Positions 45,733 through 64,000 are shown, counted from the stretch's first letter. The stretch: 64,000 bases of DNA from Synechococcus sp. UW140 (GCA_943364975.1 CALRIY020000004.1:5736-69735), one strand, 5' to 3'. Notes: generated by a model from the sequence alone, not told the origin. Program-made: numbers and translations.

Positions 45733-45812
45733 GAAAGATTGAAAGAATGAAAGATTACAAGATTACAAGATTACAAGATTACATGATTGCAAGATTACAT
45801 GATTGCATGAAT
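45733..45812. repeat. phased octamer repeat (NNNNGATT)x10
   Basis: gaaagatt gaaagaat gaaagatt acaagatt acaagatt acaagatt acatgatt gcaagatt acatgatt gcatgaat. Confidence 0.85.
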
Positions 45813-45848
45813 TTTTGGATCGGATAACAACTTATGATTCAAAGGAAT

Positions 45849-45878
45849 GGCCGAATGAAATTTCGGCCTTCTCTTTTT
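45849..45878 (+). terminator. intrinsic terminator of the S46 peptidase gene
   Basis: GGCCGAAAT-gaa-ATTTCGGCC followed by TTCTCTTTTT. Confidence 0.7.
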
Positions 45879-46026
45879 AAATACTCTTTAATATTCTCTA
45901 ACGTAAAAAAGCTCTTCTTTTCGTGAAATTCTCCTCTCCCGGCGGGTAATAATAGGGGTAAAACATTGATATTCAAGCACTTGTTGGGTATATTCCTACA
46001 CTGAATAGGAAAATTGAACCATCAAC

Positions 46027-55652: not shown

Positions 55653-57698
55653 CTACATTAAATAATCCTTCAGCCAGTCGAAGATGGTGTTGTGCCACAT
55701 TTCGGAGTTCTGCGGTTTCAGCACCCAGTGTCCCTCATCCGGGAAGTAGAGGAGTTTGGAAGGGATCCCTTTCCGCTGGAGCGTGGTGAAGAGGGAAAAT
55801 CCTTCGCCGACCGGAACACGGTAATCCAGTTCGCCGTGGATGATGAGTGTGGGGGTCTTGAAATTCTGCGCATATTTATGCGGGGAGAATTTATCGTAGT
55901 CCGGAGTTTCCCACGGAATGCCGTGCTCCCATTCGTCGAACCAGGTCTCTTCCGTGACGCCGTACATGGAATGGAAATTATAGACGCCGTCGTGACAGAT
56001 GAGTGTCTTGAATTTATCGGTGTGACCGTTCAGCCAGTTCATCATGTAGCCGCCGTAGCTTGCACCCGCTGCCGCCATCCTGTTCACATCCACGTACGGC
56101 TGTTTCTCCATGTATGCCACGCCGTTCATCACATCGGTAAAGACCTTTCCTCCCCAATCGCGGGAGATCTCGTCGGTGAACTGCTGTCCGAATCCTGTTG
56201 ACCCGCGGGGATTCGGAAGAGCGACGACATATCCCTGCGCGGCCCAGAGCTGCTGATTCCAGCGGTAGGACCATCCGTTGCCGAACGCTCCCTGCGGTCC
56301 GCCGTGCACCCAGTAGACGAGCGGATATTTCTTCGTGCCGTCGAAGAACGGCGGCTTCACGATCCACATCTGCACCTTCGTTCCGTTCGCTCCTTCGAAC
56401 CAGACATATTCCGGATCGTTCATTTCGACATGGGAGAAGAGCTGATCGTTCACGCGGGTGAGCGCTTTGGCGTTCGCGCCGCCGATCCCGGAGGACCAGA
56501 TCTCGACAGGACGGGACATTGTCTGATGTGCGAAGATGAGCATCTTTCCGTCCGGAGAAATGTTCACATCGGAATTATTCGCGTTGTCGAACACTTTCTT
56601 CACGGTTCCATCCAGGGTAATGGACCAGAGCGGAACATTCGCCTTCTCTTCGGCGGATGTATACAGCGTCTTGTTATCCTTTCCCCAGACGAATGCATCG
56701 ACATTGGTATCGAATGTGGACGAAATGCTTTTTGTTGTTCCGGCTGTGCGGTCATACAGCATCAGCTGCCAGCGGTCGGCCTCAAAACCGGGACGCGCCT
56801 GCGCACGGTACGCGATATATTTTCCGTTCGGTGAGTATTGCGGATAGACATCGGCGGCGGGATTCGTCGTGATCTGTTTTCTCTCTCCGGTGGCAAGATT
56901 CACCGTGAGGATGTCATGATTGGTGCTCCATGATTCCTCGCGGACGGGAATAGGAGTCGCTGTGTAGGCGATCTCTTTTCCATCCGGCGAAAAACTGAAA
57001 TCGTCCCCGGTGGAGAAGGTGGACGAGGTCGGGACGGCATCACGGTCACCGGGAGTGACGTTGCGAGGGTTCGTTCCGTCCGCATTCATTACGAAGATGT
57101 GCTGACGTTTATCATCGACCCAGCTGTTCCAATGGCGATAGAGAAGCTTGGTGATGACGCGTGCATTCATCTTGCTGTTGTCGCGTCCTTCCTGTTTCTG
57201 TTTGTTCAGCGCGTCGGCTTCGGCGTACGGTTTCTCGGAGAACTCGGGGAAGACTGCGGAAACGAAACCGAGCTGTTTCCCGTCCGGGGACCAGATGGCG
57301 CCGCTTGCTTCGCTGAAGATGGAGGTCACTTGTTTCGTTTCACCCGTGGCGACATTGATGGTGAAGATCTGCAGCGAGCCGTTCCGGTTGGATTCGAAGG
57401 CGATCAGTTTTCCGTCCGGCGACCAGCGGGGATGACGGTCCGCTTTCGGAGAATTGGTGAGCTGTTTCGCTTCGCCGCCGCCGGCAGGGACGAGCCAGAT
57501 ATCGGTGTTGGTGCGATTGGCGGCTTTATCCACCACACCGACAACGTATGCAACGGTTTTACCGTCGGGCGAGAGCTGCGGATCACTCACACGTTTGATG
57601 TTGAACATATCCTCGAGCTGCAGCGGGCGTTTGGTCTGCGCCTGCAGAGAGAAGACCGCCGTTAAGAACAGAACGATCAATACAATACTGCGTTTCAT
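55653..57698 (-). CDS. S9-family prolyl oligopeptidase/dipeptidyl aminopeptidase with N-terminal beta-propeller
   Basis: Start at 57698 gives signal peptide MKRSIVLIVLFLTAVFSLQAQ. Repeated SPDGK propeller blades; nucleophile elbow GASYGGYM; distal GELDYRVP and DEGH. Confidence 0.85.
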   Translation of the reverse strand: MKRSIVLIVLFLTAVFSLQAQTKRPLQLEDMFNIKRVSDPQLSPDGKTVAYVVGVVDKAANRTNTDIWLVPAGGGEAKQLTNSPKADRHPRWSPDGKLIAFESNRNGSLQIFTINVATGETKQVTSIFSEASGAIWSPDGKQLGFVSAVFPEFSEKPYAEADALNKQKQEGRDNSKMNARVITKLLYRHWNSWVDDKRQHIFVMNADGTNPRNVTPGDRDAVPTSSTFSTGDDFSFSPDGKEIAYTATPIPVREESWSTNHDILTVNLATGERKQITTNPAADVYPQYSPNGKYIAYRAQARPGFEADRWQLMLYDRTAGTTKSISSTFDTNVDAFVWGKDNKTLYTSAEEKANVPLWSITLDGTVKKVFDNANNSDVNISPDGKMLIFAHQTMSRPVEIWSSGIGGANAKALTRVNDQLFSHVEMNDPEYVWFEGANGTKVQMWIVKPPFFDGTKKYPLVYWVHGGPQGAFGNGWSYRWNQQLWAAQGYVVALPNPRGSTGFGQQFTDEISRDWGGKVFTDVMNGVAYMEKQPYVDVNRMAAAGASYGGYMMNWLNGHTDKFKTLICHDGVYNFHSMYGVTEETWFDEWEHGIPWETPDYDKFSPHKYAQNFKTPTLIIHGELDYRVPVGEGFSLFTTLQRKGIPSKLLYFPDEGHWVLKPQNSEMWHNTIFDWLKDYLM

Positions 57699-57826
57699 AC
57701 ATTCCTCAATGAGATGGGAAAATAATTGTGAAGTAAAGTAGCGGAAAAATGGGTGAGAGGCAAAAACAAAAACGGGGGTATACTTTTCGGTCTTTACGAT
57801 CTTCAACCAAACCAGTGAAGAGCTTC

Positions 57827-57897
57827 GCCACAAAGGTGTAGAACTGTTTAGTGAGCATTATTTCTTACACAAATTTGTGCTTAGGTGCCTTTGTGGC
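57827..57897. repeat. GCCACA-family hairpin downstream of dcd
   Basis: GCCACAAAGG (57827-57836) pairs with CCTTTGTGGC (57888-57897). The interior contains the 12-bp palindrome CACAAATTTGTG. Confidence 0.6.
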
Positions 57898-57907
57898 AAT
57901 TGACGAA

Positions 57908-58447
57908 CTATTTTTTAAAATTTTTCCACATCATCGATTCCACCGGTTTGATCGTCCTGCCGTTATACTTTGCATTCTTCTTTTTATTATAGAGCACTTC
58001 CACTTCGCCGTCCACAGTGAAATAGATCAACTGTCCGATCGGCATCCCTGCATACACTTTTACCGGCTGGCGGACGGAGATCTCGAGGGTCCATGTATTG
58101 CAGAATCCGATATCTCCTTTTCCCGCCGTGGCGTGGATATCGATGCCGAGTCTGCCGATGGAGCTTTTTCCTTCCAGGAAGGGGACATGCGCATGCGACT
58201 CGGTGTATTCTTCGGTGACGCCGAGATATAGTTTGCTTGGAACGAGGATCAATCCATCAGAAGGGATCTCGAAATGTCGAACCTTGTTGTGGACCTTCGC
58301 ATCGAGGATCTCATCCTCGTACATCGCAAGGTATTTTCCAAGATGCACATCATAGCTGTTCGAGCCGAGAAATTTCCGGTCGAACGGAGTGATCACAATG
58401 GTCCCTTTATGCATTTCATCGAGGATCTTTTTGTCGGAGAGGATCAT
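57908..58447 (-). CDS. dcd: dCTP deaminase
   Basis: MILSDKKILDEM...ITPFD...GSNSYDVHLG and the catalytic region EGKSSIGRLGI; 179 aa. Confidence 0.85.
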   Translation of the reverse strand: MILSDKKILDEMHKGTIVITPFDRKFLGSNSYDVHLGKYLAMYEDEILDAKVHNKVRHFEIPSDGLILVPSKLYLGVTEEYTESHAHVPFLEGKSSIGRLGIDIHATAGKGDIGFCNTWTLEISVRQPVKVYAGMPIGQLIYFTVDGEVEVLYNKKKNAKYNGRTIKPVESMMWKNFKK

Positions 58448-58468: not shown

Positions 58469-58510
58469 ATGGAGAATGTAGAATGTAGAATGAAGAATGT
58501 AAATGTGGAG
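58469..58510. repeat. heptamer tandem repeat (ATGNAGA)x6
   Basis: atggaga atgtaga atgtaga atgaaga atgtaaa tgtggag, located 22-63 nt upstream of the dcd start. Confidence 0.8.
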
Positions 58511-58735
58511 GAAATATACGAAAAACGGGATGAGAATAAATTGAAAAACAAAAACATCAATATCCTCAATGAATATCATATTTATTTGTATCCCCGTGGG
58601 CATTTCCTACACGGTTCACGGTCTTTTAAGCATGACCGAAGCGGAATAAATAATCCTCCACAAAAAAACTGCAGATACATTTCCTATAGACAAAAACAAA
58701 TCGGACAACGTGCTCTGTTGTGTGATTTAGATTCC

Positions 58736-58764
58736 TTGACTACCCGTGAAAAAAGGGATACTTT
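58736..58764 (+). promoter_or_regulatory. sigma-70-like promoter of T9SS paralog 1
   Basis: TTGACT (58736-58741), 17-nt spacer, TACTTT (58759-58764). The same architecture and flanks (cTTGACTAC...AAAAAAGGnATA) occur at 60734-60762. Confidence 0.45.
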
Positions 58765-58776
58765 TTAACAGATAAA

Positions 58777-58855
58777 ATGAGCAGTCGAATTATCCTGACT
58801 CTCTCTAACATCCCTCCCGGGACCTCCCCATCCCCCGAGTCTTGTTAGCTCTCAG
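58777..58855 (+). promoter_or_regulatory. conserved leader element, copy A (candidate 5' UTR RNA or operator)
   Basis: Blocks ATGAGCAGTC (58777-86), GACTCTCTCTAACATCCC (58797-814) and TGTTAGCTCTCAG (58843-55) are identical to copy B. The sequence between the blocks is unrelated. Confidence 0.55.
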
Positions 58856-58949
58856 AAACGTGTTCGCCTTATCGACACCTCTGACGCTGATAAGCAATCA
58901 TGTGTCGAAGCAGCGGATCCTCATCACACATATTCCCCCAGGAGGGACA

Positions 58950-60485
58950 ATGAAATATTTCTATCTCTTTTTTCTCCTCACCACATTCCTTGCGGCACAG
59001 ATCACTGTTGTTTCCACCGTGCCGGCCAACAACGCGAAGAATATTCCGCTGACAACGACACTCAGCGTAACATTCAGCGAAGCGCTGGATACGGTGGCGA
59101 TGGAGAACAACAACAACGGTGATTCACAATTCTCCAATGTCGACAGTGTCTTGTTCCATTGGTACAGTGCCGATGCAAAGACGATGTATGCCAAAGTGGT
59201 GTTGAAAGCCGGCGAACCGTATTTTATTGCTTTTATGTATGTGAAAGCAAAATCGGGTGCAATTCTTACCACTCCTTTTGTCACCTATTTTACAACAGGA
59301 GCGGACTTCCCGCCGTACTCTGTGAGCGGAACAGTCTCTTCGGGATCATCGGGAGTATTGCCGGAAGGTTCCGTCGTTGGACTAGCATCGAAGAATGTCA
59401 TGGAAGAAGAGGGAGGAGGGGGACCCCCGCCGTTTGTTGGCTGGACCAATGTGAACAGCAACGGTACATTCACTGTTCCGTATTTGAAGAACGGTACATA
59501 CTGGCCGATCGCTGTTAAGGATGCCGATCATGATGGATCCATCAAACCGGAAGGTGGAGCTGATGCGTTCGCCTTCGGCGATTCGATCATCATTAAGGAC
59601 GGATCGTTCACCAATCTGAATTTGACCTTTATCAAAATGTCGCCGACGATGCTGCATGAAGTGATCGCTGATGCCGAAACGCTTGCCATGAAGAATCTCC
59701 CGGTGGACCGTGTGCTGAGAAGGGTCTCCGGGTATGATGTGGATACACTCGGCCGCTGCAGCGGATGGGAATTCATCTACTCCATCAACGGGAATACGCA
59801 GGGGAAAGGGGTCCGTGTCGGCAATTTCGACAACAAAGTGTACGACATTGACTATAATTATTTCAACTGGATCCAAATGATGAAACCGATCACCGGTCTG
59901 AAGTCCGCAGCGACCAGCGCAACGGTCATTGCAAGCGCGGATAATGCAGGAGGAAAATTATTCCGCAAACTTCCCGTGCCCCCCGGGGCGGAAATGCGTG
60001 TGGAACTGTCGATGAATGATGCCACCAGAGGGTGGTTCGGAGGCGGTCCCGGCGGATATGACACCAACAAGATCTATTGGAATGTCGCCTACGTTCATAA
60101 TGTTCAGGTGACGAACGATTCTTCGAATTGGATCGACGGCGTCTTCTATCTCTGCGACTTGAGCACGGGAGCGGTGATCGCTTCCCGGACGATGGGTGTC
60201 GGTACGGAAGGAGTCCTCCCGTCGGAATACTCTCTGATGCAGAATTTCCCGAATCCCTTCAATCCTGCCACGAGTATCCGTTTCGTGCTGCCGGTCTCCG
60301 GCCGGACGACGCTGAAGGTGTACGATCTGCTCGGACGCGAAGTGGCGGAACTGGTGAACGAGAGAATGGAAGCAGGCGAATATACCGTTCCGTTCAATGC
60401 GCAGAAGCTGACGAGCGGTGTCTATTTCTATCAGCTCAGGAGCGGTACGTATGTTGAGACGAAAAGGATGATGCTGGTGAAATAA
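58950..60485 (+). CDS. secreted protein with Ig-like (SbsA-type) N-terminal module and T9SS C-terminal sorting domain, paralog 1
   Basis: ATG at 58950 after GGAGGG; signal peptide MKYFYLFFLLTTFLAAQ; ITVVSTVPANNAKNIPLTTTLSVTFSEALD; C-terminal LMQNFPNPFNPATSIRF...GVYFYQL. Confidence 0.8.
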   Translation: MKYFYLFFLLTTFLAAQITVVSTVPANNAKNIPLTTTLSVTFSEALDTVAMENNNNGDSQFSNVDSVLFHWYSADAKTMYAKVVLKAGEPYFIAFMYVKAKSGAILTTPFVTYFTTGADFPPYSVSGTVSSGSSGVLPEGSVVGLASKNVMEEEGGGGPPPFVGWTNVNSNGTFTVPYLKNGTYWPIAVKDADHDGSIKPEGGADAFAFGDSIIIKDGSFTNLNLTFIKMSPTMLHEVIADAETLAMKNLPVDRVLRRVSGYDVDTLGRCSGWEFIYSINGNTQGKGVRVGNFDNKVYDIDYNYFNWIQMMKPITGLKSAATSATVIASADNAGGKLFRKLPVPPGAEMRVELSMNDATRGWFGGGPGGYDTNKIYWNVAYVHNVQVTNDSSNWIDGVFYLCDLSTGAVIASRTMGVGTEGVLPSEYSLMQNFPNPFNPATSIRFVLPVSGRTTLKVYDLLGREVAELVNERMEAGEYTVPFNAQKLTSGVYFYQLRSGTYVETKRMMLVK

Positions 60486-60529
60486 AAACATTCACCACAG
60501 AGGGCACGGAGAACACGGAGAATTTTGTA

Positions 60530-60574
60530 GGGGCGGACTTCCCGCCACAAAAACAGCGGGTAAACAGTCCGCCC
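60530..60574. repeat. inverted-repeat-bounded segment, orientation 1
   Basis: GGGGCGGAC ... GTCCGCCC enclosing ttcccgccacaaaaacagcgggtaaaca. This interior is the reverse complement (about 80% identity) of the interior at 63182-63211. Confidence 0.7.
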
Positions 60575-60584
60575 ATTGTAAAAA

Positions 60585-60624
60585 AAAACACCTTCCAGGT
60601 CTTCAAGACCTGGAAGGTGTTTTT
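60585..60624 (+). terminator. intrinsic terminator hairpin (GTCTTnAAGAC palindrome family)
   Basis: AAAACACCTTCCAGGTCTTcAAGACCTGGAAGGTGTTTT. Confidence 0.8.
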
Positions 60625-60733
60625 GCGTTTCAGGTAACCGTACGAAGGTTTCAAAAGATGTGCAAAATAAACTTCGTAAGGTTACGGACGTATTGCTAAC
60701 GGACAAATCAGTCCGCTGTGTGACGAATGACGC

Positions 60734-60762
60734 TTGACTACTCTGCAAAAAAGGAATAATTT
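60734..60762 (+). promoter_or_regulatory. sigma-70-like promoter of T9SS paralog 2
   Basis: TTGACT (60734-60739), 17-nt spacer, TAATTT (60757-60762). Confidence 0.45.
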
Positions 60763-60777
60763 AAAAATAGAAAAATT

Positions 60778-60855
60778 ATGAGCAGTCCCCTCAGCGGGAC
60801 TCTCTCTAACATCCCACGCGATCTTCGTTCTTCCACGGGCTGTGTTAGCTCTCAG
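60778..60855 (+). promoter_or_regulatory. conserved leader element, copy B
   Basis: Blocks ATGAGCAGTC (60778-87), GACTCTCTCTAACATCCC (60798-815) and TGTTAGCTCTCAG (60843-55). The first hairpin is extended to AGTCCC/GGGACT. Confidence 0.55.
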
Positions 60856-60959
60856 GTTGGTGTTTGTTATCTCGGCACGACTGAAAGTTCACTATCGCTT
60901 CTGCGCCGGTCATAACATACCAGTACTCCCACTTCACAATCATCCCTTGAGGGGGCTCT

Positions 60960-63128
60960 ATGAAAAAACTATTCCCATTATTCCTGTTGATGATCTGCAC
61001 AGGAATGCTCTTCGCTCAGTTCTCGGTCGTCTCCGTCCAGCCGGCGAACAATGCGGTGAACGTTCCTCTGCAGACAACGATCAGCATCACATTCAGTGAA
61101 CCGATCGATACCAACGCCATGAACGATGGCGGCGACGACTCCTGGTACACCAATATCGACAGCATGGTATCGTACGGATATAGTGCGGACCAAAAGACGG
61201 CATGGAGTACCCATGTGCTAAAACCGAACACGGCGTACTTCTTCGCGTTCTCGTTTGTCAAAGCAAAATCCGGCGCCGTCATTACAACGCCGCATGTCTA
61301 TTATTTCACCACCGGCGCAGCCTTCCCGGCGTATTCGGTCAGCGGAACGATCTCCGCGGGAACAATCGGCATCGATCCTGCCGGTTCGGTGGTGGCATTG
61401 TCTACCGTGAATTTTATGGAACAGGAGACCGACGGTCCGCCGCCGTTCGGGGGCTGGGCAAATGTGAATCCGAACGGGACGTACACCATTCCGTATGTGC
61501 CGAACGGAAAATACTGGCCGCTGGTGGCAAAAGATGTGAATGGAGACGGCAGACTTAATCCGGGACAGAGCGGTGATGTTGTTGTGATGGGGGATTCCAT
61601 CATCGTGAACAATGCATCGCTGACGAATGTGAATATGTCCTTCTTCTCCATTCTCTCCGTAGTACCGGCGAACGAAGCCATGAATGTTCCGCTGAATACC
61701 ACGATCAGTATTACGTTCAGCGAACCGATCGACGAAGAAGCGATGCAGAACAGCCAGGATAATTGGTTCACCAGTGTTGACAGTGTTGTGTCCAGCGGGA
61801 TCAGCGATAACGGAAGGACGATTTGGAGCACGGTGGTGCTGAAACCGAATACGGCCTATTTTATCGCATTCATGTATGTCCGTTCGAAGAACGGATCGGT
61901 GCTGACAAAGCCGCAAATGTTCTACTTCACAACCGGACCGGCATTTCCGACAACATCGGTGAGCGGCACAGTCTTATCCGGCTCCACCGGTGTTCCTCCC
62001 GGAGGGGCTATTGTGGGATTGGCGAAGATCGACTTTCTCAATCAGAAGACCGATGGTCCTCCGCCGTTCGGAGGGTGGGGTCAGGTGAATGCCAACGGTA
62101 CGTTCACAATTCCGTACGTGGCGAACGGAACATACTGGCCGCTGGCGGCAAAAGATGTCAACGGCGACGGTGAATTGGATCCGGACAACGGCGTGGATGT
62201 GATGGCATTCGGCGATTCGATCGTCGTCAATAATGCTTCCGTTACGGGAGTGAATATGACATTCCTCTCGCTTAAACCAAATCTCTTCAGTGATGTGATC
62301 CATACCGCCGACAGTATGGCCGCGGCGCGTTTGCCGGCAGACCGTTCGCTTCGGCGGATCAATGCCTGGGAAGTGGATACGCTTGGAAGGGGACGTTCCT
62401 GGGAATTCGCGTACAGCGTCAATGGGAACACGATGGGAAAGATCATCCGGATCGGCACGATGGACAGACAAGTGGACGATATGGATCCGAATTATTTCCA
62501 ATGGGTCAGCCAGATGAAACCGGTGATCGGGTACGGAACGGCAGCATCCAGTGCAACAGTGATCGCGAATGTTGAAGCGGCCGGCGGTAAGGCGGTACGG
62601 CTGCAGCAGATCCCTTCGCAATGGGAGTTCCGGATCGAACTGACGATGTCCGATCAGAAGAACGGATGGTTCGGCGGACCATTCCCGCCGGATTATGATA
62701 CATCGAAGATCTATTGGGCGGTGGCGTATGCCTATAACCATCACATCTCGAACGAACAAAATGAGTGGATGGGAGGGAAATTATTCCTCTGCGATCTGGC
62801 GACCGGTGCGGTGTTAAAAACAAAACAGATCGTCACGGGTGTGAAAGACCATCCGGATGTTCCGACAGAGTGTACGCTCTCGCAGAATTATCCGAATCCG
62901 TTTAATCCCGTCACAAGCATCACCTTTGCGATCCCAACAGCGAACAACACTTCAATAAAAGTGTACGATATGCTGGGTCAGGAGATCGCCGTGCTGGTGA
63001 ACGAGAAGAAAGATGCCGGAACATATACGGTGCCGTTCTCTGCAGCACATCTGCCGAGCGGAGTGTATTTCTACCGGCTGCAGTCGGGAAGTTATACTCA
63101 GACCAAAAAGATGATGCTTCTCAAGTAA
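60960..63128 (+). CDS. secreted protein with duplicated Ig-like/beta-sandwich N-terminal module and T9SS C-terminal sorting domain, paralog 2
   Basis: Signal peptide MKKLFPLFLLMICTGMLFAQ. Module 1 is ~61017-61643 and module 2 ~61644-62270 (both start FSxxSVxPANxAxNVPLxTTISITFSEPID). The remainder is collinear with paralog 1. C-terminal LSQNYPNPFNPVTSITF...GVYFYRL. Confidence 0.85.
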   Translation: MKKLFPLFLLMICTGMLFAQFSVVSVQPANNAVNVPLQTTISITFSEPIDTNAMNDGGDDSWYTNIDSMVSYGYSADQKTAWSTHVLKPNTAYFFAFSFVKAKSGAVITTPHVYYFTTGAAFPAYSVSGTISAGTIGIDPAGSVVALSTVNFMEQETDGPPPFGGWANVNPNGTYTIPYVPNGKYWPLVAKDVNGDGRLNPGQSGDVVVMGDSIIVNNASLTNVNMSFFSILSVVPANEAMNVPLNTTISITFSEPIDEEAMQNSQDNWFTSVDSVVSSGISDNGRTIWSTVVLKPNTAYFIAFMYVRSKNGSVLTKPQMFYFTTGPAFPTTSVSGTVLSGSTGVPPGGAIVGLAKIDFLNQKTDGPPPFGGWGQVNANGTFTIPYVANGTYWPLAAKDVNGDGELDPDNGVDVMAFGDSIVVNNASVTGVNMTFLSLKPNLFSDVIHTADSMAAARLPADRSLRRINAWEVDTLGRGRSWEFAYSVNGNTMGKIIRIGTMDRQVDDMDPNYFQWVSQMKPVIGYGTAASSATVIANVEAAGGKAVRLQQIPSQWEFRIELTMSDQKNGWFGGPFPPDYDTSKIYWAVAYAYNHHISNEQNEWMGGKLFLCDLATGAVLKTKQIVTGVKDHPDVPTECTLSQNYPNPFNPVTSITFAIPTANNTSIKVYDMLGQEIAVLVNEKKDAGTYTVPFSAAHLPSGVYFYRLQSGSYTQTKKMMLLK

Positions 63129-63232: not shown

Positions 63233-63269
63233 AAACACCTTCCAGGTCTTGAAGACCTGGAAGGTGTTT
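63233..63269 (+). terminator. intrinsic terminator hairpin (GTCTTnAAGAC palindrome family)
   Basis: AAACACCTTCCAGGTCTTgAAGACCTGGAAGGTGTTT followed by TGCGTTT. Confidence 0.8.
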
Positions 63270-63336
63270 TGCGTTTCCGGAAACCTTGAGAAGGTTAATC
63301 GCAAATTTTTCGAAACCTTCGCAAGGTTTTATTTAA

Positions 63337-63935
63337 CCACAGGCTTCCTTAGATGGACCACACCTTTTGTTAATGCGCAGGAGGTGTAGTCCATCGTTTA
63401 CATTTTATTATCCGTGGTAATCCTTTCTTTCCGTGTTTTCCGTGTGCCATCTTGCGCATCGACAGAATGCCTGCCATCCTGCGTATCGACAGCTCGCTTC
63501 CTCAGATGGACCACACCTTTTGTGGTTCGACTCGCTTCGGAAAAAACTAGGAGCTCGCTCACCATGACTTATGTGAAAAATATTGTTTATACGCAGGAGG
63601 TGTAGTCCATCGTTTACATTTTATTATCCGTGGTAATTCTTTCTTTCCGTGTTTTCCCCCGCCCTTCGGCGGGGCAGGCGTGTGCCATCTTGCGCATCGA
63701 CAGCAAGCTCCCTCAGATGGACCACACATTTTGTGGTTCGACTCGCTTCGGAAAAAGCCAGGAGCTCGCTCACCATGACTTATGTGAAAAATATTGTTTA
63801 TGCGCAGGAGGTGTAGTCCATCGTTTACATTTTATTATCCGTGGTAATCCTTTCTTTCCGTGTAATCCCCGCCTGCCGGCGGGCAGGCGTGTGCCATCCT
63901 GCGCATCGTAGCGCAGGAGGTGTAGTCCATCATTT
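63337..63935. repeat. tandem array of ~210-217-bp composite repeat units (about 3.5 copies, may continue beyond the window)
   Basis: The unit landmark GCGCAGGAGGTGTAGTCCATC recurs at 63375, 63592, 63802 and 63911. CTCAGATGGACCACAC recurs at ~63344, 63500 and 63710. Copies differ by a GC hairpin insertion (CCCCGCCcttcGGCGGGG) and an internal ~75-bp deletion in the first copy. Confidence 0.85.
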
Positions 63936-64000
63936 CCCATCTCAACTAGCTCTGTAATTGTATCCTAAGATAATAGAAGGTCAGGATCAACGTGGCGATC

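Follow-up and report, generated by a model that had tools for sequence, protein, structure and literature searches.

Two tandem paralogous genes in a 64,000-nucleotide (nt) stretch of DNA from Synechococcus sp. UW140 (GCA_943364975.1 CALRIY020000004.1:5736-69735; the whole stretch is hereafter the window, and positions are counted from its first letter) are each preceded by a leader that most likely belongs to a new family of cis-regulatory leader RNAs, either orphan riboswitch-like or bound by a protein. The leader is conserved in 24 distinct instances, follows a conserved promoter-like site, pairs with itself on the sense strand with covariation, and has two competing conserved folds in its 3' part. 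It precedes members of two gene families, namely surface proteins with a type IX secretion system (T9SS) sorting domain and a small cytoplasmic HEAT-repeat protein. In having a structured domain with an invariant core and covarying stems, located on the sense strand between a promoter-like site and a start codon, it shows the layout of a riboswitch-type element. A search of Rfam 15 with the whole window recovered 0 matches at the gathering thresholds, and a search with the region 58600-61000, at E-values up to 10, recovered nothing on either leader, the weak matches falling on a terminator (60538-60771) or inside coding sequences. No description of the motif was found in the literature.

The two leaders of the window

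The leaders, termed here copy A and copy B, share three blocks of perfect identity: block 1, ATGAGCAGTC (58777-58786 in copy A and 60778-60787 in copy B), block 2, GACTCTCTCTAACATCCC (58797-58814 and 60798-60815), and block 3, TGTTAGCTCTCAG (58843-58855 and 60843-60855). A preliminary description of this DNA had reported these blocks, the promoter boxes ahead of them and the lack of similarity between the segments that separate them. All of these check out in both copies, the intervening segments being 10 nt and then 28 nt (copy A) or 27 nt (copy B) long and unrelated in sequence. The 18-mer of block 2 occurs at only two sites in the window even when 3 mismatches are allowed, with 0.05 expected by chance, and two matches were found in 0 of 100 shuffled controls. 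As the paralogous proteins (P0019 and P0001) are only ~49% identical, the 41 nt of perfect identity in the leader blocks far exceeds what drift would be expected to leave. The promoter-like sites, ribosome-binding sites and genes are as follows:

58736-58764, + strand: promoter-like site of copy A, TTGACT (58736-58741), 17-nt spacer, TACTTT (58759-58764)
58940-58946, + strand: Shine-Dalgarno (SD) sequence of copy A, AGGAGGG, with the start codon at 58950-58952
58950-60485, + strand: paralog A gene, encoding a 511-aa protein with Big_5 and T9SS sorting domains
60734-60762, + strand: promoter-like site of copy B, TTGACT (60734-60739), 17-nt spacer, TAATTT (60757-60762)
60949-60955, + strand: SD sequence of copy B, GAGGGGG, with the start codon at 60960-60962
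60960-63128, + strand: paralog B gene, encoding the 722-aa paralog

Recurrence across genomes and gene association

Further instances were collected in three ways. A scan with the exact block pattern over one genome per species returned 9 further instances in 8 metagenome-assembled genomes (MAGs) labelled Bacteroidota or Ignavibacteriae, and a scan of Joint Genome Institute (JGI) metagenomes with a slightly looser pattern returned 8, of which 7 were new. The third set comprised homologues fetched by protein alone and then searched with a covariance model, R1, derived from the 21 sequences collected first. The element is present in each of the six homologues that have at least 44% identity (L013, L020, L021, L031, L032 and L033); among the five with at most 42% identity (L010, L012, L016, L017 and L019) none matches R1, L019 having only 165 nt upstream of the gene. 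The search of related genomes proposed in the preliminary description has in this way added 22 instances, all from Bacteroidota/Ignavibacteria-type MAGs and metagenomes, to the two of the window. About 30 nt are invariant across instances whose proteins are only 44-50% identical.

Both paralogs of the window contain an N-terminal Big_5 immunoglobulin (Ig)-like domain and a C-terminal T9SS sorting domain (Por_Secre_tail), and 22 of the 24 instances precede orthologues of these two paralog types. The remaining two (L004 and L026) precede a gene for a 187-188-aa HEAT_2 protein that lacks a signal peptide. Both of these genomes also hold a T9SS-gene copy of the leader (L008 and L025, respectively), and in L013, L020 and L021 the orthologous HEAT gene is found directly downstream of the T9SS gene. 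A HEAT gene was looked for in the 64-kb window and none was found. The occurrence of the same leader ahead of the HEAT gene as well as the T9SS gene suggests an independent regulatory module. Judging from its genomic context, the element appears to define a small two-family regulon, consisting of one or two T9SS-secreted multi-Ig (S-layer-like) surface proteins and a cytoplasmic HEAT-repeat protein.

An AlphaFold model of paralog A (pLDDT, the predicted local distance difference test score, 85) consists of a string of β-sandwich domains, and its best matches in the PDB, as recovered with Foldseek, are the S-layer proteins SbsC, Sap and EA1, all with low template modelling (TM) scores. The HEAT protein shows generic HEAT-repeat matches only and is mildly acidic, with an isoelectric point of 5.5-6.7. 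A CopC-like copper-binding role for the surface proteins, raised by one weak Pfam hit and a JGI name, was considered and rejected; the region matched is the generic Ig-like N-terminus, and a histidine is absent from the N-terminus of the mature protein.

Synteny upstream of the leader is shared by L013, L020, L021, L033 and the window (55653-58447), where an S9/Tricorn-like peptidase gene and dcd (dCTP deaminase) on the opposite strand are found. In the same loci genes for a TonB-dependent receptor and N-acetylglucosamine (GlcNAc) 2-epimerase-like T9SS proteins often lie downstream.

A candidate third copy in the window, at 45837-45928 (R1, 25.8 bits), was rejected. This weak match is made up of the terminator hairpin of the preceding peptidase gene and two short words: the hairpin GGCCGAAAU…AUUUCGGCC, with a U-rich tail, follows an S46-type peptidase gene, and UCUCUAAC and AGCUCU come after it by coincidence.

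Promoter position and upstream DNA elements

A TTGAC[AT]-N17-TAnnTT site lies shortly upstream of block 1 in 23 of the 24 instances (14-25 nt before GAGNAG in the 21 that were measured). The exception, L032, has TTGGAG-N16-TATAGT instead, and all 24 instances are thus located behind a promoter-like site. Going by these conserved boxes, the element should begin within roughly 5-18 nt of the 5' end of the mRNA.

A further conserved region precedes the -35 hexamer in the window copies and in L002, L005, L007, L009, L028 and L033. In one clade of T9SS-gene copies it consists of a palindrome, CGGA-N8-TCCG, and then a GTGTGAY box located 9 nt before TTGAC; in another clade the palindrome is AAGA-N8-TCTT-like, and the HEAT-gene copies have neither the palindrome nor the box. 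This upstream region is probably a DNA-level transcription-factor site that is separate from the RNA element. In the window it is represented by:

58702-58726, + strand: upstream element of copy A, with an imperfect palindrome CGGA-N8-TCTG (58702-58717) and a GTGTGAT box (58720-58726) 9 nt before the -35 hexamer
directly upstream of the -35 hexamer at 60734, + strand: equivalent of copy B, CGGA-N8-TCCG and GTGTGAC, from the upstream alignment

The 5' domain: hairpins H1 and P3

The 5' domain of the two window leaders comprises the following parts:

58779-58803, + strand: hairpin H1 of copy A (GAG, bulged C, AGUCG, loop, UGACU, CUC), from the RNAalifold consensus; it includes the AGTC/GACT stem (P2) of the preliminary description
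58805-58848, + strand: hairpin P3 of copy A, closed by P3a (CUAACA 58805-58810 with UGUUAG 58843-58848)
interior of P3 in copy A, + strand: 3x3 pyrimidine internal loop, then P3b (CUC 58814-58816 with GAG 58837-58839)
distal part of P3 in copy A, + strand: CC/CC loop, then P3c (GGG 58819-58821 with CCC 58832-58834)
58849-58855, + strand: tail CUCUC(AG) of copy A, the 5' strand of helix H3
60780-60804, + strand: hairpin H1 of copy B (GAG, bulged C, AGUCCC, loop CUCAGC, GGGACU, CUC)
60806-60848, + strand: hairpin P3 of copy B (CUAACA 60806-60811 with UGUUAG 60843-60848)

In the RNAalifold consensus GAG pairs with the CUC that directly follows P2 to form the single hairpin H1, GAG-N-AGY…RCU-CUC, with a tip of 2-7 bp and loops that are unrelated among the instances. 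The tip covaries: at position 15:29, 11 sequences have a U-A pair and 9 have C-G, AGUCU/AGACU variants also occur, and G.U pairs are present in L004 and W_A. In the long hairpin P3 the closing helix P3a (CUAACA:UGUUAG) encloses the 3x3 pyrimidine loop, P3b, the CC/CC loop, P3c and a variable tip. P3b is CUC:GAG, but CAC:GUG in L005 and L009, and P3c is GAG:CUC, GGG:CCC or CGG:CCG; covariation of these two stems includes A-U versus G-C at the pair 51:71. In L031 P3a consists of CUGGCA opposite UGUUAG, two A-U pairs having become G.U. Changes that retain pairing through G.U alone, as in P2 of L004 and W_A and in P3a of L031, fit an RNA rather than a DNA element. The segment GAG(N)AG, the first CUCUC and the CUCUC tail after P3 are each invariant in 24 of 24 instances.

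This pairing was evaluated on two alignments. On the sequence-only alignment A4, 90.6% of the cells of the 5' domain are paired versus 31-46% when the partners are slid by 1-3 columns, with 9 compensatory pairs; on A7, derived from the 24-sequence model, the values are 91.4% versus 31-47%, with compensatory changes in 8 pairs and 29 cells. The covariation score of the domain was reached by 0 of 500 shuffles on A4 and likewise on A7. The earlier suggestion that selection acts on a nucleic-acid element, folded as RNA in the 5' untranslated region (UTR), is thus upheld, with ~91% of the cells in 24 instances paired versus 31-47% in the slid controls. The additional homologues do show the structure-preserving variation (8-9 compensatory pairs) that was to be looked for, and the proposed P2 stem covaries across the instances. 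In the proposed CTAACA/TGTTAG hairpin the interior stems covary, L031 keeps the pairing by G.U, and P3a itself never covaries. As for the three-way junction also envisaged, the GAGC/GCTC pairing fits, but its closing helix is not demonstrated and GAG may equally pair with the CUC after P2. The junction and the tandem hairpins fit the sequences equally well and receive equal scores, because GAG and both CUC words never vary. Other possible partners of the tail of copy A are GAG 58779-58781 (P1 of the preliminary description) or H1, to which it might add as a third strand.

In all instances, including 58811-58842 and 60812-60842 of the window, either strand of P3 has the 5'-to-3' sequence CUC-CC-GAG, which makes the stem two-fold symmetric, and all five non-Watson-Crick positions place a pyrimidine opposite a pyrimidine. 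Such a stem might accommodate a dimeric protein, or pairs that depend on protonation or on a metal.

The 3' domain: two competing folds

The remaining ~100 nt of each leader had been described as largely drifted. This is not the case, as conserved and covarying helices are found there. The sequence GCUCUCAG immediately after P3 can pair with a conserved CUGA-N-GAGY located ~25-35 nt downstream to form the helix H3, which encloses a small hairpin, P4 (GUGUU…RRCAC). On a sequence-only MAFFT alignment of 16 'long' leaders (A8), 88.3% of the H3/P4 cells are paired versus 34-46% when slid, with mostly one-sided changes from U-A to U-G and few compensatory ones; in the leaders outside the long group H3/P4 is a strong hairpin. 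Each strand of P4 has a second complementary partner in the long group: for the 5' strand it is a segment ~45 nt further on (P5), as in the pairings GUUUGUUAU:AUAACAAAC, GUUUGCUG:CAGCAAAC, GUUCGUUC:GAACGAAC and GUUUGUCGG:CCGACAAAC, and for the 3' strand a GUGUYGA block (P6). In the window these segments are:

58860-58919, + strand: 3' domain of copy A, with X = GUGUUCGC (58860-58867) and Y = UCGACAC (58872-58878)
58886-58895, + strand: 3' strand of H3 in copy A, GCUGAUAAGC
distal strands of copy A, + strand: X' = GUGUCGA (58902-58908) and Y' = GCGGAUC (58913-58919)
alternative foldings of copy A: H3 with the local X:Y hairpin (P4), or nested X:Y' (P5) and Y:X' (P6)
60849-60920, + strand: tail and 3' domain of copy B, the tail CUCUC being 60849-60853
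H3 of copy B, + strand: GCUCUCAG (60848-60855) with CUGAAAGU (60881-60888)
P5 of copy B, + strand: GUUUGUUAU (60862-60870) with AUAACAUAC (60912-60920)
P6 of copy B, + strand: CGGCAC (60873-60878) with GCGCCG (60903-60908)

On A8, 74.7% of the P5/P6 cells are paired versus 32-46% when slid, and 33 cells are compensatory versus 13 expected; a model-based alignment gives similar numbers. Many of the pairs in the 3' domain are G.U. In an alignment-free test, the two segments of a leader were paired with one another and, as a control, segments were paired between leaders, and the best duplex energies were compared; in 5000 permutations the observed mean was reached 3 times for P5 and 218 times for P6. 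Since P4 and P5 share a strand, H3/P4 and P5/P6 cannot coexist and are mutually exclusive. When only the nascent 47 nt after P3 are folded, H3/P4 is obtained in 12 of the 16 long leaders (mean -10.6 kcal/mol), whereas all 16 adopt P5/P6 and leave the CUCUC tail unpaired when the 3' domain is complete (mean -21.3 kcal/mol). These predicted folds suggest an ordered refolding, in which the tail is first held in H3 and later released, as in the anatomy of an expression platform.

Search for the regulatory output

The leaders are C-rich and G-poor, with a median C/G of 1.41 versus a mean of 0.98 for the window, and lead to the best SD sequences among the 26 genes of the window (predicted anti-SD pairing of -10.8 kcal/mol for copy A and -10.6 kcal/mol for copy B). 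The 26 gene starts mostly show weak or no SD complementarity, few having AGGAG, and the paralogs are the strongest by far.

In minimum-energy folds the SD usually pairs with some pyrimidine tract, the 5' domain included, and a conserved anti-SD was examined as a candidate output and rejected. The mean energy of pairing is -12.20 kcal/mol for a leader's own segments and -12.22 kcal/mol across sequences (2566 of 5000 permutations), and the mean z-score versus shuffled sequences is -0.3. The position of the partner shifts between leaders, and only the window copies stand out (z of -3.4 and -2.5), using different partner segments. The equality of own, cross-sequence and shuffled energies indicates that the SD pairing is an effect of composition.

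The two window genes are separate transcription units, with the same terminator hairpin at the end of each (60586-60623 and 63233-63270). These strong hairpins, AAACACCTTCCAGGTCTTSAAGACCTGGAAGGTGTTTT, are 97% identical after the two paralogs, and ~220 nt across the 3' end of each paralog and the adjoining downstream sequence are 75% identical between the two.

Possible mechanism and alternative explanations

We consider it fairly probable that the element is a cis-acting structured leader in which an effector reads the invariant core (the H1 base, P3a and the CUCUC tail), biases refolding, and thereby sets translation or the survival of the transcript. The leader would be a structured, untranslated 5' region of ~170-220 nt, transcribed with its gene and acting in cis, and the mRNA would start a few nucleotides, some 5-18 nt, upstream of GAGNAG. 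H1, with its five-pair purine/pyrimidine stem GAG(N)AG:CUCUC and variable tip, would form first, followed by the long hairpin P3, in which CUAACA:UGUUAG is the closing helix, the inner stems covary and the internal loops contain pyrimidines only. The CUCUC tail after P3 would initially pair with the downstream CUGA-N-GAG in H3, enclosing P4; once the leader is complete, the more stable nested P5/P6 could displace H3/P4 and free the tail. An effector would recognise the invariant core and bias this refolding; candidates are an RNA-binding protein, pH, and a small molecule or ion. How much product the downstream gene yields would then depend on the refolding, by way of ribosome access to the strong SD or of premature termination or decay within the leader, which is rich in C and poor in G.

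Several points weigh against the leader being such an effector-responsive switch. The 5' end of the mRNA is placed by the promoter-like boxes alone. Both pattern scans demanded the core blocks, which inflates the apparent invariance and leaves 6 unbiased instances, and many of the sequences come from related MAGs, so that independent substitution events are fewer than the cell counts suggest. The most conserved helices, the H1 base and P3a, never covary, their support being complementarity and two wobble changes, and in L032 P3a has U.U in place of C-G at its first pair. The regulated genes offer no hint of a ligand, as no enzyme or transporter signature was found in them by Pfam, NCBIfam, PDB sequence and Foldseek searches. 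A conserved link of either 3' fold to the SD was not found beyond the cross-sequence and shuffled controls, and no intrinsic terminator was found on the + strand of 58736-58949 and 60734-60959.

The leader might instead be constitutive, with a 5' hairpin that guards the mRNA of an abundant surface protein and presents a strong SD, without sensing any effector. The genes do look made for high expression, with a near-consensus promoter, the strongest SDs in the window and a G-poor stretch before the SD. The structural resemblance of paralog A to SbsC, Sap and EA1, though at low TM-scores, the location of H1 within ~5-18 nt of the predicted 5' end, and the long upstream regions that more distant homologues possess even without the motif all point in the same direction. 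However, a protective hairpin needs no set sequence, yet ~30 nt are invariant across proteins 44-50% identical; nor does protection require two mutually exclusive conserved folds, and the identical leader is kept before the small cytoplasmic HEAT-repeat gene. Taken together, the ~30 invariant nt, the competing folds and the retention of the leader before this unrelated gene favour specific recognition of the core over mere protection, and we regard a purely stabilising or translation-boosting role as unlikely.

The remaining alternatives fare worse. An operator had been named as an option in the preliminary description. On this view the blocks are double-stranded sites, just downstream of the promoter, for a transcription factor that represses both genes, and they indeed lie at about +10 to +85, a frequent position for repressors, CTAACA/TGTTAG is an inverted repeat, and separate conserved DNA elements are present upstream of the -35 hexamer. 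But the spacing of the half-sites varies over 25-39 nt, the sequence between them covaries as a hairpin, the pairing in L031 is kept by G.U only, which in DNA symmetry is a mismatch, the distant P5/P6 segments covary with many G.U pairs, and the repeat is flanked on its two sides by CTCTC in direct, not inverted, orientation; an operator is therefore very improbable. An upstream ORF, MSS…TLSNIP, whose translation regulates the gene was suggested by the ATG with which both window copies open block 1 and by the residues they share, and had been viewed with doubt from the start. The doubt is justified, since an ATG ORF in the window frame runs across the blocks in only 4 of 24 leaders and in 17 of 24 there is none in any frame. 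A U precedes GAG in no more than about one-third of the sequences, no SD precedes the ATG, and the third block falls in different frames in copies A and B, leaving a leader peptide with hardly any credibility. Finally, while the neighbouring tandem paralogs share terminator hairpins at 97% identity, as a recent duplication or gene conversion might leave behind, the notion that the blocks are a functionless leftover of such an event is refuted by the comparative data: the paralogs are ~49% identical, and the blocks occur in 22 other sequences, before both paralog types and an unrelated gene.

A more specific, though improbable, proposal for how the core might act is a five-layer pyrimidine-motif triple helix, in which GAG(N)AG would pair with the first CUCUC by Watson-Crick and with the second by Hoogsteen pairing, yielding a switch that senses pH or ions. 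Alternating C+.G-C and U.A-U triples would then stack on P3 with its five pyrimidine-pyrimidine mismatches, and the downstream CUGA-N-GAG would compete for the third strand. In 24 of 24 instances the sequence and polarity rule for such a triplex, which is a requirement on sequence only, is satisfied by the homopurine GAG(N)AG, the CUCUC and a second CUCUC parallel to the purines. The triplex, if formed, would explain why nominally helical nucleotides are invariant. Pyrimidine-motif major-groove RNA triplexes are found in the SAM-II riboswitch, the telomerase pseudoknot and ENE elements, where they consist mostly of U.A-U triples inside pseudoknots. The leader resembles these in having a homopurine strand, G-A-G-(bulge)-A-G, and two CUCUC strands of the right polarity, but it would need a protonated C in 3 of the 5 triples, and its topology is that of two stacked hairpins and a tail. 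We know of no bacterial mRNA leader that senses pH or ions by a triplex of this kind.

Comparison with known systems

Orphan riboswitch candidates and cis-regulatory leader motifs of the Rfam type share several features with the element, including a location in the sense-strand 5' UTR, an invariant core with covarying peripheral stems and tips of variable length, competing downstream helices, and recurrence before a small set of genes in one lineage. Unlike them, the present leader has closing helices that are invariant rather than covarying, has no match in Rfam 15, precedes surface Ig-like and HEAT-repeat genes instead of genes for transport or metabolism, and has no terminator or SD link that we could find.

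Long structured 5' UTRs are also present in genes for S-layer and outer-membrane proteins, such as slpA of Lactobacillus, slpA of Thermus (where control is autogenous) and ompA of Escherichia coli, and the leaders of S-layer genes and ompA are reported to stabilise the mRNA. The resemblance lies in the long leader, the strong promoter and SD, the 5'-proximal hairpin and a secreted surface protein that is probably very abundant. In contrast to the present element, those leaders are not known to be conserved in sequence over a comparable divergence of the protein or to be shared with an unrelated cytoplasmic gene.

Leaders bound by proteins, such as the autoregulatory ones of ribosomal-protein genes or the targets of RRM-type RNA-binding proteins of Bacteroidota, among them RbpB, offer a further comparison, in that the pyrimidine-rich single-stranded CUCUCU/CUCUC and the symmetric P3 would be suitable targets for an RNA-binding protein that is sequence-specific or dimeric; unlike what such a system might suggest, the co-regulated HEAT protein is mildly acidic and not suggestive of RNA binding. 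Hfq and CsrA are reported to be missing from Bacteroides, most of which have RRM-1 RNA-binding proteins (PMC13370968). RbpB is a global binder of single-stranded RNA for which no CU-specific motif is reported (PMC11697453).

Through the leader, a secreted surface protein becomes linked with a conserved HEAT-repeat protein, and the ~30-nt invariant core, two-family regulon and two competing folds of the element provide a handle that can be tested by mutation. Post-transcriptional control has hardly been studied in Ignavibacteria or their relatives among the Bacteroidota. If the leader senses a ligand or pH it would constitute a new class of sensing RNA, and if it is only an mRNA stabiliser it would be a useful expression part for these organisms; the distribution of the family is narrow.

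Other repeats in the window

A tandem repeat of ~211-216 nt, present in at least 3 copies with 94-96% identity, occupies 63343-63940 and reaches the end of the window, with several short spurious ORFs running through it. Intergenic short tandem repeats of the gattacaa type and the gaatgtagaatg type are found at 45757-45810 and 58476-58510.

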